Made by a program: the position numbers and the translations under genes. DNA of 63,503 bases, counting the filler, from Collodictyon triciliatum (taxonomy: Eukaryota): assembly GCA_043381765.1 (NCBI GenBank). It is 8 parts of 8 records of this genome, joined end to end, with 100 filler letters (N's around TTAATTAATTAA, not from the genome) between each part and the next. Parts side by side here need not be neighbours in the genome. Positions count along the whole stretch, not along the records: positions 38,551 to 50,467 come from JBHJMP010000848.1; 7 more parts are not named here. One strand, written 5' to 3'. The notes beneath the pieces were generated by a model. The model was given only the letters and a program-made list of their open reading frames with translations. It was not told the origin of the DNA and did not search any database. Below, in pieces: positions 45,141 through 49,593 of this stretch (its first letter is position 1; each line of letters begins with the position of its first letter).

Positions 45141-48100
45141 CTACGCCTTGATTCGTTTCCTCAACCATCGGGCAAGGACTATGCTCAGCGTGACAGCAAA
45201 TGCAGGAATGGAAAACAGAATCGACCAGAAGGAAATCAGCAAACGGATGTCACCGTGGTAGTGCCCATGAACTTCCAAATGAGCAGCCCTTAAATGAAAA
45301 GGGTATCAGAGTGATGATTGTGCTTCATTCTTTGATGAATTTAGGTGAACTGCTGATGTAGTGCAGAGAAAAATAAACCTTGTCAGCCCTGTTGGATGCG
45401 TTCGCTTCAATCTTTTCTGGATTTTCTGTGTCGACAGTGTAAATTATTGATCAAAATTCACCATATACGAAAGCAAAAGAGTCCAGGAAATCATAAAATC
45501 TGGTAATTGAATCAAAATATTTTGAAATACACACCTGTTGTGAAAATATAAGTTCAAGCTTGCGGCGCATATGAAGAATAGAAGGGTCGCTGGAGCTTGC
45601 AAGGTTAATCTGCCAGCAATCATGAATGAAATAAGTTATAAGTTGGCTATGACCCTACAGATAAAGTCAATTATAATTATGACTACGATACATTATTCCA
45701 GAGACCGAAACCCACCTTCTCGATCGGGTCCTTGGTTAGATTGTAAATCTCGTACTCATCGGGATAGGGGACCGTGCGGATGTTTTTTTTCCCTCTCACC
45801 GGGAATTCGCGCTGAACAAATTCGTTCTTTACAAACGGTACAGTCCAGTTCTCTGTTAAGAAAATAAGAAAAAATGCGTTCTCCCTTTTATTGTTCCTTA
45901 TGTCACAGTAAAACTAGAACAGTGAGATATTATTCCTAGTCTAGGTGCAAATACATTAGGTGGATGGCTATCTGAATGGAAAGAAACCTGGATTGTCCCA
46001 GTACCGTATGTACTTCCAAACTTCTGTCTTTCCATTCTCCGCCCGAATCGTAGTGATGATTCCCTCAATCGACGTGGCTGCATCTGCTCATGAAGAGTAC
46101 ATGGCACAGTTAGATATAATGCCGGTTTTAGAGCTGGGAAAAATTACTCCTACGAGCATAATAATACTTACCGACGTGGTCAAATTCAAAGTGATAGAGC
46201 TTAAGAATGACCTAAAAACAATGAAAATGCATTTGAAGTCTGCATAAATATTCACATTATAATAACGATTGTTCACACTGTGGGATTATTACATGAAGTA
46301 TATGTGGTAAGATTCTTGTTTTACCGGGAAAAGCTTAGAAGGCGTTGCTCTCTGCCCATTTCCTCGTGTTACTTCATCTTCAGTCTTGAATTTATAAAAG
46401 TACGCAAGGAAGCGAATAAAATGAAGAAACATCACAAAGATGATGAAATCGTTAGATGTTTGTGATAAATAAATACCAATTCACTGATTTTTATTAAGAG
46501 TTAAAAATAAAAAGAATGAACCGTACCATGAAAAATACAGCCACTTCGGGTTCCGGTGGTGACGTGCCTAGTATCTGCTTGGAAAAATCATGACCAATAA
46601 GTTTTGCGGCTTCTCGGTGAGTTGATTTCAGCCTGTCGTTGATTTCCTGTGTTGGTTAGGTGATTAATATACCTTTATTTTTCTAAATCAAAAAAAAAAA
46701 CTTCGCATTCAACTCAACTGAACTCATATAACGAAAGACTTTAGATAATTCTAGTTGTATAAGTAATATTTTTTGAGTAAAGGGAATGTACATTTGCATC
46801 GATTTTAGCGAGGCCCAAAAGTGTTGGGATTAAATCAACGTGAGTGGTGGGGAAGTCGATTGTTCTGGACTCATTCTCTTTAAAAAGCACGGGGTTGGAA
46901 AAAATCAGGGGAATATGGATACATTCCTGCATAATTAAATTTCTTGTCATGAATAAAAGTGAAGCCTGTCTGGATAAGGCATAAGTGAATCGCTTATTTC
47001 CTCTCTGAAATTTGGAGCATTAAAGAGACAAATGAATAAAACATGGCACATCAAATGATGGTGGTGGTTGTGGTACATCAAATCACTGCGCACAGACCTC
47101 ATATGCGTTGTACCACTTTTGCATAATTCCCCCATGCGAACCGAGAACATCACCATGGTCAGATGTAAATACGACGACAGTGTTTTCGAAAAACCGAGTC
47201 TGGCAATGAGGAGATGTTGACTCAATTATATTCAGTACTGATTCAAACGATTGTTCGTCAAAATAAATAAATAAATAAAAAATAAAAATAAAAAACGTCG
47301 TGTAGAAAACAACATATTAAACAAAATTCATAGTCCATACCGAAACCAATTTCTCATACACTCTTTTGACATGGGCATCAACAACCTTGTGAAAATATTA
47401 AATATGGTATAATTACTATCGGAACAGCTTGAATAAAAGATTGAAATCTGCATCATAAAGTCAGTTACCTTGTGCAGATAGTAATACAATCTTCGATATG
47501 CAGCCGGAAAAAACACTGGCTGGAACATCTTCCTATACTGGGAAATGTACTTGGCCTGGGCGATTGTTTTAGTTGTGATGACTGTCTTAAATCTGAATAA
47601 CTGAAGAAATAGATAAAAGCAAGAGCAATCAAGTATATAATAATAGTAGCAAACGAATACCTGCGCTGATGGCTTCGATTTAAGATTCTCCCAATAAGTC
47701 GGAGACGATGGGATATGAGGGATGGTTGAGTCTGGGTTACGGTATTGGAACCAGTACCAAAGAATTGGGAAAAACACAATGTCGTGTGGATTCACAAAGG
47801 AACTACAGTTTGCAATACGGCTGGGTTAAAAAGGGTAATGATTCATCAAGTCATGAGTTTCGTCTTGATCAAGACGTTTAATAGGCGATAACCAGAAGCC
47901 ACATTATTGAAATAGAGAGAACCAAAATATTTCATAAACTATACCAGCAAAGAAGAAAAGGTTTGTCGTTCTCTGACTTGTCTCTTTCGTCCAACCAATC
48001 TATGACCTGAATATAACATACTCAAACATGAATGGAAGTTCACTTCCTTTTAAATCCATATTTAGAAATGAGCCCTGCATATTTTTATAAAAATATAATT

Positions 48101-49593
48101 ACATTTGGAGCTTTGAGAAGAAAGTGGCTACCTGTTGGGCATAGAACGGGTCCATGTTCATACCTCAAGAGAAAGAGAGAGAAAAGAAAGTAACAGAAAT
48201 GAGCATCGAGCAACGAGTGAATTATTGGTTAGACTTAAAAAATTAAATATATTCATGTAAAGCTTCTGCAAATCTACCGCTGTTTTCCTGGTGGGTTCCG
48301 TGTGGTTCAGGGCCAACCCATCCAGAAAATCCGTACTTTTTCTGAACGAAGGAACTCAAATTATTTTCCTCACAATAAATGAAAAGAAAACATCACGGAT
48401 CATTAAGGTATAGCAAAAAGACACGGGTATTGAATTGATTTTTAGTCACCAGCGGGTCTACGCCAATGTACTCCTTCTCAACAGACTTATCGACACCTTT
48501 GAGCCCAACTGTCTGCGGACTTTGTCCATCCGAATCTACCAGATCTTCGAAAGATATATGCCACTTGCCTGCAAAAGAAAACAACTTGCTGTCACCACGA
48601 TTAAATAAGCTTCGGTTTGTATACGCACTCATAAAAACAATTTTAAAAACACGGCAAAAGTGGAGCAACCTTTGTAAACACAATCGTATCCCGCCTCTGT
48701 AAAGTAGTCTCCCTTTGAAGGTGGATTTAATATGGGATTCCAGTATGATTGGGGCTAGAGTACTACTTCGGGGAAATATCCTCTATGTTTGTTTCCCTTT
48801 TCAAATCAGCTAATAGAAAAAACAAACCATCGTGGGTACGGTGTCGTCCTCTAGCCAGAAAACTCGCTCATCGTTGTACTCTTTTGCTCCACCGTAGGTT
48901 TGAGATACGCGGTGAAACGAAGGGTAGTGTCCCGTGAAAAGAGATGCTACCAATTTATGTAGATATAAGATACAATTATTAGAAAGGGTGTCGTAATTTT
49001 AAAAAAAAAAGACAATTTAAAAATATCTGTATAACACAGATACAAACCTCGCGAAGGAGAACACGCTGTTGAAGACGAGTAATGCCGAGTGCATTCAATC
49101 CCGTGCTGAAGTATTTTGTTGCGACCTTCGAGTTGTTCTATGAATTAAAAGTACGTGACTAAGCCATGCATTTTTGTTTCCTCATCGATTTTGCTTTGAG
49201 ATTAATATAGGATGGAAAAGTGAATGATGTTAATAATAATAAATAAATAAATGAATAAATAAATAAATAAATAAAACAATAAAAAAATAAAGTCCGCTAA
49301 ATGATCCCAGGCATTCAGGTTAGTTGCTTCGCTCAGTGAATCAAAGTGTGTGACTGAAACTGCTTGGAGGTAGGCAATCACAAAGCACTCAACAGTGTTC
49401 ATCGGCCCGGTAATTGGGAAAAAAGAAAAAAAAGAAGAGAAAAACATGGGCGAATACCTCGACGAAAGCGACGAATCTCTTCATTTTCATACACTGGCGG
49501 GTACCTCTCCTCGTCAGTGATCAAGATCAGAAAGTTCGGGCGAGTTTTCGCCTTGGAATCGGCGCTTGAGGAACGATCATCTGCGGATGTCAT
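45141..49593 (-). CDS. Cys-type (formylglycine) sulfatase of bacterial-like subfamily with a C-terminal TM anchor (about 20 exons)
   Basis: RPNFLILITDEERYPPVYE, ACSPSRASLFTGHYP, GYDCVYKGKWH, SFVNPHD, VFTSDHGD, HVDLIPTLLGL and YNLTKDPIE. C-terminus LLISFWSILFSIPAFAVTLSIVLARWLRKRIKA*. Confidence 0.92.

Follow-up and report, generated by a model that had tools for sequence, protein, structure and literature searches.

To our knowledge, all characterised eukaryotic S1 sulfatases pass through the lumen of the endoplasmic reticulum (ER), where the formylglycine-generating enzyme (FGE) makes their catalytic formylglycine. Human steroid sulfatase (STS, 1p49), a membrane-bound S1 sulfatase, enters the ER by a signal peptide and has two internal helices and a luminal catalytic domain, where FGE acts. 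The bacterial choline-O-sulfatase BetC of Ensifer (Sinorhizobium) meliloti (6fny, 6g5z) is leaderless and cytoplasmic. Here we describe a gene on the minus strand (49593-45141) of a 63,503-nucleotide stretch of DNA from Collodictyon triciliatum, assembly GCA_043381765.1 (hereafter the window; eight parts of eight records joined with filler letters, the gene lying in the part from JBHJMP010000848.1), which encodes a Cys-type S1 sulfatase of 632 amino acids (aa). The protein resembles BetC, which is also of the Cys-type S1 class and whose CxPxR, GK.H, PHD and SDHGD motifs align with it, but the BetC chains have 508-520 residues and the matches to them end before the linker and helix. The similarity to STS is distant (E 1.2e-10, N-terminal region only) and, unlike STS, the window protein has no leader and a single helix at its extreme C-terminus, with a predicted orientation opposite to that of the human enzyme. 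As a whole, this locus is best explained by a tail-anchored, formylglycine-type sulfatase that probably faces the cytosol.

A comparable layout, with a cytosolic body, a C-terminal helix, a short charged tail steering the protein to an organelle and C-terminal isoforms, is described for FALDH-ER/FALDH-PO and ACBD5 in the cited passages of Costello et al. (2017, PMC5450235). The sulfatase differs from these proteins in belonging to another enzyme family and in having, in Diphylleia rotans, an alternative isoform (P0001) wholly without the anchor; its targeting in a protist is a prediction. We found no tail-anchored or cytosol-facing eukaryotic S1 sulfatase in the titles and abstracts of the literature searched, most subscription journals being outside that scope, and the SulfAtlas paper mentions neither signal peptides nor the cytoplasm.

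The two ends of the protein

The last exon of the gene (exon 21, 45141..45288) encodes a linker with the motif HYHGDIR (45263-45243), an uncharged stretch of 24 residues (residues 600-623 of 632; 45242-45171) with a Kyte-Doolittle mean (grand average of hydropathy, GRAVY) of 2.20, and a nine-residue tail, RWLRKRIKA (45170-45144), with five basic residues, followed by the TAG stop codon (45143-45141). The protein has a single predicted transmembrane helix near its C-terminus. The C-terminus of the Diphylleia isoform P0126 (620 aa, in the same cluster as P0001 and 65.6% identical to the window protein over 619 aligned columns) matches this arrangement, with HYKGDIR, 24 uncharged residues (GRAVY 2.35) and a 10-residue tail that also contains five basic residues. 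In an AlphaFold2 model of P0126 obtained with a 22-sequence alignment (mean pLDDT 84.9, pTM 0.87), residues 568-583, which correspond to the linker, have pLDDT values below 50 and residues 584-619 form one helix.

Transcript evidence came from the public run X1, which holds 16% of the region's sampled words and whose contigs were aligned to the window. We treated X1 as cDNA because its contigs skip introns and because one loose end resembles a template-switch adapter. One contig of 840 nucleotides (nt) joins exons 13-21 and runs 17 nt beyond the stop codon (to 45124), with the joint 45288|45379 at the predicted GT-AG, so that the anchor exon is spliced in. The nine differences between X1 and the window comprise three in the 3' untranslated region (UTR) and six in the coding sequence; five of these six are synonymous, including both of those in the basic tail (45164 and 45168), and the sixth is K519E. 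Over the whole gene, X1 contigs skip 15 of the 20 introns exactly at the predicted sites, and a loose end of 15 letters at 48827 speaks for a 16th. Introns 9-12 are without X1 cover (47008-47559 is bare), as are 49216-49399 and all positions above 49583. Among the other runs, X2 gave no match to the region and X3 gave one contig, belonging to the upstream neighbour only. The sulfatase is encoded by a genuine eukaryotic gene that is expressed.

The shorter Diphylleia isoform P0001 ends, within one residue, at the position of the boundary between exons 20 and 21 of the window, which fits the retention of a homologous intron or the use of another 3' end. Retention of intron 20 in the window would add 22 residues in frame before a stop, giving an anchor-less form. 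When the anchor exon alone (48 aa, a very short query) was searched against longer proteins, none of the 15 candidates reached E <= 10. Judged by its sequence, the protein has the architecture of a tail-anchored protein, and its insertion into a membrane is predicted. The sequence-only reading of this DNA, which had proposed a last exon adding a hydrophobic helix followed by RWLRKRIKA and hence a tail anchor, is borne out at the level of sequence by the X1 joint, by the measured length of the uncharged stretch and by the conservation of the anchor in Diphylleia.

At the other end, the first core strand (RPNFLILITDEE) is preceded by an N-terminal stretch of 18 polar or charged residues. The leaderless start noted in the sequence-only reading agrees with the family as a whole, since no more than 22 residues precede the first strand in 101 of the 103 relatives in which this strand was located, out of 127 proteins surveyed. 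Only P0057 and P0093 depart from this, the former by a hydrophobic leader and the latter by an extension rich in lysine. The open reading frames (ORFs) of three Diphylleia isoforms and of the bacterial relatives begin at the same position as the window protein. In the unspliced 5' region (49594..50215), an in-frame TAA (49650-49648) stands 19 codons upstream of the ATG, without any ATG between. If a candidate 5'UTR intron (about 49684-49602; donor GT at 49684-83, acceptors ending at 49608, 49605 or 49602) is spliced, an in-frame TAG stands 13-15 codons upstream, as had been noticed before. By inspection of the sequence, with the 5' end bare of RNA cover, no signal or hydrophobic segment lies ahead of the C-terminal one, and the cleavable ER signal peptide of the classical luminal sulfatases (ARSA, STS, IDS) was not found.

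Could a 5' exon carrying a signal peptide have been missed? In that event we would be dealing with an ordinary type I membrane sulfatase, whose catalytic domain would be luminal or extracellular and matured by the FGE of the ER. Such an exon could lie where contig cover of the transcript ends, as everything 5' of 49539, the candidate 5'UTR intron included, lacks RNA cover, and a signal peptide is combined with a C-terminal helix in members of the same clade (Seminavis and Corallochytrium, see below). However, the poly(A) end of the next upstream minus-strand transcript is seen at 50216 as a loose end with a T-run, which leaves only about 620 nt for the promoter and 5'UTR of the sulfatase gene. 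When all single GT-AG introns in this space were enumerated, they gave 28 hypothetical ATG extensions, none of which begins with a hydrophobic leader. The in-frame stops 13-19 codons upstream and the common start of the three Diphylleia isoform ORFs speak in the same direction, as does the nine-residue tail, which is like those of the other leaderless members of the clade and unlike the 14-24 residues of the signal-peptide forms. We therefore consider a missed signal-peptide exon improbable. The neighbouring transcript itself is visible at 50216-50300 on the minus strand, as a 3' end with a poly(A) trace in contigs of both X1 and X3.

Gene structure and sulfatase identity

The gene consists of 21 exons separated by 20 introns of 60-320 nt, all 20 of them GT-AG. 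Exon 1 (49458..49593) contains the ATG (49593-49591), the polar N-terminus, the first core strand and the metal-binding Asp (ITDEE, 49521-49507); an X1 contig spans 49458-49539 and is joined to exon 2 (49048..49137), which ends in CSPSR (49063-49049; Cys71 codon 49063-49061). Introns 1 and 2 are both joined in the X1 contig. Exon 3 (48828..48946) completes the sulfatase signature with ASLFTG, and the 15-letter loose end of the X1 contig at its border (48827) corresponds to the start of exon 4 (48670..48712). The joint of intron 4 is also found in an X1 contig. The GKWH motif, with its Lys and His, runs across exons 4 and 5 (48670..48558). X1 contigs cover exon 5 (48450..48568), exon 6 (48278..48341), which encodes the GPEPHG motif, exon 7 (48132..48163), exon 8 (47945..48006) and exon 9 (47661..47802), with NPHD at 47792-47781.

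The next three exons were placed by homology. Exon 10 (47469..47555) most likely starts at 47555, an in-frame acceptor choice that gives a gap-free alignment with P0126, the junction being without RNA cover. The alternative in-frame acceptor at 47600, which looks stronger and gives a 647-aa model, was rejected because its 15 extra residues are absent from all homologues. Exon 11 (47341..47385) and exon 12 (47098..47199) are drawn from homology only, the latter with SDHGD (47163-47149) and the Lys of QKW (47121-47113). X1 contigs again cover exon 13 (46792..46926), exon 14 (46527..46646), exon 15 (46325..46384), exon 16 (46172..46211), exon 17 (45988..46083), exon 18 (45716..45852), exon 19 (45535..45609) and exon 20 (45379..45425), the last exon of the catalytic body, which precedes the anchor exon.

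The CxPxR motif is intact, as first read: CSPSR occupies residues 71-75 and the complete signature CSPSRASLFTG, split by intron 2, residues 71-81, in agreement with the pattern C/S-x-P/A-x-R-x(4)-T-G. The window protein has all of the motifs ITDEE, GKWH, NPHD, SDHGD and QKW, which hold the catalytic Lys and His and the metal-binding Asp and His, and these motifs align to choline sulfatase. In both of our alignments (A1 and A2), the Cys, Arg, Lys, His and Asp columns do not vary. Single exons of the window gave weak matches to the Pfam Sulfatase model, 13-19 bits each, being fragments; the full-length score, 133.9 bits against a cut-off of 25 on PF00884, was obtained with the Diphylleia orthologue P0126 (66% identical).

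The best solved relative of P0126 is the choline sulfatase 6fny (sequence E 1.7e-20; Foldseek E 2.6e-23, TM 0.5-0.6, 17-18% identity in the fold alignment), and the matches to STS and IDS in the PDB are weaker (E 1e-10 to 1e-14). P0126 is, however, far below every NCBIfam equivalog cut-off, with 120 bits against 433.45 for the choline sulfatase model TIGR03417, and the Rigifila protein P0099 (139.9 bits) is likewise below. By the curated cut-off, the window protein falls outside the choline sulfatases. Its motifs, domain and fold make it an S1 sulfatase, for which formylglycine conversion and the hydrolysis of sulfate esters are predicted.

Bacterial relatives and the eukaryote-type clade

A search with exons 9-10 found P0001 (571 aa, EukProt) together with bacterial-looking proteins. 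With full-length P0001 as query, 6,088 proteins were recovered at E <= 1e-10 among 8,000 candidates scored. All 15 organism-named matches among the best 120 were bacteria (Blastocatellia and other Acidobacteriota, Chloroflexi, Binatia, Polyangiaceae, Sorangium, Burkholderiales, Bacillus and Paenibacillus), and two EukProt entries were also in the best 120. A pattern scan of species-representative bacterial genomes gave at least 583 confirmed relatives among 601 matched stretches, and 45,933 cluster representatives at E <= 0.001, 394 of them at E <= 1e-30, came from an exhaustive search with HMMER. A metagenome scan with P0013 gave 79 pattern matches, none of them confirmed; the scan with alignment A2 gave 80 loci, nearly all bacterial-looking, L081 being the only one resembling a eukaryotic transcript (1,999 nt, 36% GC, an A-rich leader and one ORF). 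The family is therefore bacterial in type, as the sequence-only reading had it. It is very large and uncharacterised, and its bacterial members are leaderless and presumably cytoplasmic. The window protein is 41% identical to the protein of Rigifila ramosa and 40-48% identical to bacterial members.

Phylogenetic analyses were performed with FastTree on 199 and 147 rows. In both trees, the window protein and Diphylleia branched inside a group of sequences with N-terminal leaders and/or C-terminal helices. We then used IQ-TREE (LG+G4, 631 columns) on 47 of the 147 rows, namely every candidate row of the eukaryote type, a range of bacterial rows and two distant ones. The window protein and Diphylleia were grouped with full support (100/100). 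In a clade of 29 rows (99/99), every eukaryote-type row was joined by two leader-bearing rows and by two pairs, one Mycolicibacterium/actinobacterial and one Binatia-type. In the best tree, the 23 eukaryote-type rows were on one side of a single branch, with an ultrafast bootstrap of 28 and an SH-aLRT support of 96. A single origin of these rows is our best estimate, with low bootstrap. Holding the window protein, Diphylleia and Rigifila together cost 14.3 log-likelihood units and was not rejected (p-AU 0.27). Six of the 23 rows come from named eukaryotes, the clade taking in Diphylleia, Rigifila, Corallochytrium, Seminavis and Noctiluca; a eukaryotic origin of the others is suggested by transcript-sized contigs (about 2 kb) and by one contig with an A-rich leader.

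Hydropathy flags marked a C-terminal helix in 12 of the 23 eukaryote-type rows against none of the 24 others, and an N-terminal leader in six of the 23 against two of the 24. The leaderless forms with a helix have short tails, with 9 residues after the helix in the window protein, 10 in P0126, 4 in P0011 and 8 in P0013, as well as 10, read by eye, in P0133. The protein of Noctiluca scintillans (P0273) is also leaderless, and its hydrophobic C-terminus has no clean uncharged stretch from which a tail could be delimited. The forms with both a leader and a helix have 24 (P0057), 22 (P0145, Corallochytrium limacisporum, Clim_evm4s240), 14 (P0158, Seminavis robusta, CAB9512228.1) and 16 (P0135) residues after the helix. 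The Seminavis and Corallochytrium proteins thus end in a hydrophobic helix like the window protein but differ from it by their leader and their tails of 14-22 residues, and are predicted to be type I proteins with the enzyme luminal or extracellular. Since the lack of a leader goes together with a helix at the extreme end, the leaderless forms would be true tail-anchored proteins rather than truncated models, and the clade would have flipped between luminal forms (signal peptide and helix) and cytosolic forms (helix only). The sequence-only reading had named a position nested among luminal sulfatases of eukaryotes as evidence that would speak against it; this holds for the clade, through its members with leader and helix, and not for the window protein itself.

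The sequence-only reading had also suggested a donor among Actinobacteria or Bacillus. A recent, lineage-specific horizontal transfer from these bacteria, with introns gained since, would agree with the dominance of bacteria in the family and with the presence of Mycolicibacterium and other Actinomycetota in the nearest bacterial group of the maximum likelihood (ML) tree. The ML trees nevertheless place the window protein with Diphylleia (100/100), Rigifila, Corallochytrium, Seminavis and Noctiluca, in one clade with 22 further eukaryote-type rows in the best tree (28/96), and the grouping with Rigifila was not rejected, as said above. In addition, the identity to any bacterial member is only 40-48%, and the 20 introns of the gene argue for a long residence. 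Such a recent transfer thus seems very improbable, and the proposed donor was not retained; the data point instead to an old eukaryotic acquisition.

The mycobacterial and Acidimicrobiia members of the 29-row clade have no C-terminal helix. PMC3675115 counts AtsF among the five type I sulfatases of M. tuberculosis and gives its substrate as unknown; we found no literature on Rv3077 together with sulfatase. The Binatia-type bacterial group of the same clade (P0008, P0014, P0015, P0020, P0024, P0031, P0041, P0071 and similar proteins, 611-626 aa) has a C-terminal extension of about 45 residues that follows the shared KRL..HP ending and includes a moderately hydrophobic segment (...PWIDLAAVPGL..LLDRFV...). 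One may speculate that this segment is a peripheral membrane helix, conceivably a forerunner of the eukaryotic anchor. Two other bacterial proteins, P0002 and P0005, have CSASR in place of CSPSR. The missing Pro suits maturation of the anSME type, or another one, better than FGE.

Topology, maturation and meaning

In a leaderless protein whose only hydrophobic segment is at the extreme end, release from the ribosome is complete before the segment can be inserted, so that insertion is post-translational and the body stays in the cytosol. The window protein and Diphylleia share this layout, with a catalytic body of 560-580 residues, a flexible linker, one helix, a strongly basic tail of 9-10 residues and no N-terminal signal, and a cytosol-facing topology is strongly implied by it. 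Together with the target membrane, the substrate and the maturation route, this topology is what we infer. The protein would be completed in the cytosol and its helix would then be inserted post-translationally into an organelle membrane, leaving the sulfatase domain on the cytosolic face, where it may hydrolyse small or membrane-bound sulfate esters. If the last splice is skipped, the product would be soluble and cytosolic, a form that the second Diphylleia isoform suggests.

In mammalian cells, tail charges of about +4.9, +2.9 and +0.9 direct ACBD5 to peroxisomes, mitochondria and the ER, respectively, and a helix with a GRAVY of 2.4 goes to the ER with a negative tail and to peroxisomes with a +9 tail (cited passages of Costello et al., 2017, PMC5450235). 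With a GRAVY of 2.2-2.35 and a tail charge of +4 to +5, the peroxisome or the mitochondrial outer membrane is somewhat favoured over the ER as the predicted target.

Cys71 would have to be converted to formylglycine outside the ER lumen. An FGE-like enzyme in the cytosol could do this, as in bacteria of this family, or the conversion could depend on a system that is not yet known. Among the bacterial relatives, maturation takes place in the cytoplasm, in some cases beside a leaderless FGE. An FGE gene (PF03781, E 6e-57 to 3e-80) is directly upstream of the sulfatase gene in three of 80 bacterial loci, all from Actinomycetota, and in one of these (L047) the FGE domain begins at residue 8, so that this FGE is leaderless. 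A radical-SAM gene lies 3.8 kb from the sulfatase gene in one of the 80 loci. The ORFs of 24 bacterial neighbourhoods (96 in total; a 25th locus was left out because the filter found no sulfatase ORF in it) included two FGE, three MFS, two LysR, three AraC-type and two DJ-1 proteins. The two DJ-1/PfpI-domain genes adjoin the sulfatase gene (L010, 10913-12367; L062, 9793-11541).

Alternatively, the enzyme could be cytosolic and anchored with its Cys71 never converted, in which case it would have only weak or promiscuous hydrolytic activity, towards phosphate or phosphonate esters for instance, or would act by binding without catalysis. The eukaryotic cytosol has no known maturase, and phosphonate monoester hydrolases are among the fold relatives; yet these hydrolases use formylglycine too. 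Across the clade the catalytic columns, CxPxR included, do not vary, and the window protein, 66% identical to that of Diphylleia, has them too. Moreover, the X1 differences are mostly synonymous, suggesting that the active site is under constraint. The loss of conversion thus appears unlikely to us, even though eukaryotic FGE is described as ER-resident in the cited passages of PMC8869759, where fungi and nematodes are also reported to have Cys-type sulfatases without an FGE homologue, suggesting an unknown system.

Several observations weigh against a cytosol-facing, tail-anchored sulfatase, in addition to the bare 5' end of the transcript. The orientation is deduced from the lack of a leader, and the RNA label of X1 is only a guess. 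Seminavis, Corallochytrium, P0057 and P0135, with their leader and C-terminal helix, bring a luminal form close by in the clade. GRAVY and tail charge together point to no single target membrane, and the rules used come from mammalian cells. Bacterial neighbourhoods gave no clue to the substrate, no neighbour family occurring in more than three of the 24 loci. Finally, tblastn with three bacterial FGE ORFs and one radical-SAM ORF found no homologue of either in the window (best E 0.31), the sulfatase query recovering its exons in the same search as a positive control. A cytosolic enzyme might be unmodified and weak or inactive.

The window contains other features. A single long ORF on the minus strand at 55745-56404 encodes a membrane protein of the Mpv17/PMP22 family (PF04117, E 1.4e-23), whose members are peroxisomal and mitochondrial inner-membrane proteins. 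The ORF is 6 kb away from the sulfatase gene in the window, with no link seen between the two. A non-LTR (long terminal repeat) retrotransposon-like ORF at 23898-25832 (minus strand), interrupted by a run of N, matches a reverse transcriptase (PF00078, E 6e-8), with an endonuclease-like part before it; its halves repeat a similar stretch and probably represent two copies or a duplicated segment. At 5170-5949 (minus strand), an ORF of 259 aa contains a Walker-A motif and matches RecA/AAA weakly (E about 1e-4, below cut-offs); it may represent a RAD51-paralogue-like gene. Runs of 44 N occur in seven pairs, with 12 bases within each pair, at 20195-20294, 25190-25289, 29713-29812, 38451-38550, 50468-50567, 58757-58856 and 62271-62370, and none of them touches the sulfatase gene.

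Going further, we tentatively suggest that some protists could run a sulfatase system on the cytosolic face of organelles, combining a tail-anchored sulfatase, a splice switch between anchored and soluble forms and a cytosolic route to formylglycine. The route might rely on a leaderless FGE that came with the gene, or on the system whose existence is also suspected in fungi and nematodes. If the bulk of the protein faces the cytosol, either formylglycine is made in the eukaryotic cytosol or the family works without it, and both outcomes would bear on the maturation of Cys-type sulfatases in eukaryotes without a recognisable FGE, such as fungi and nematodes (cited passages of PMC8869759). It would also imply a turnover of sulfate esters at organelle surfaces, a process that has not been described. 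The gene provides one well-annotated eukaryotic entry into a sulfatase family that is very large (394 cluster representatives at E <= 1e-30) and uncharacterised, and the topology flips of its clade could serve as a natural experiment for finding the cytosolic formylglycine route.

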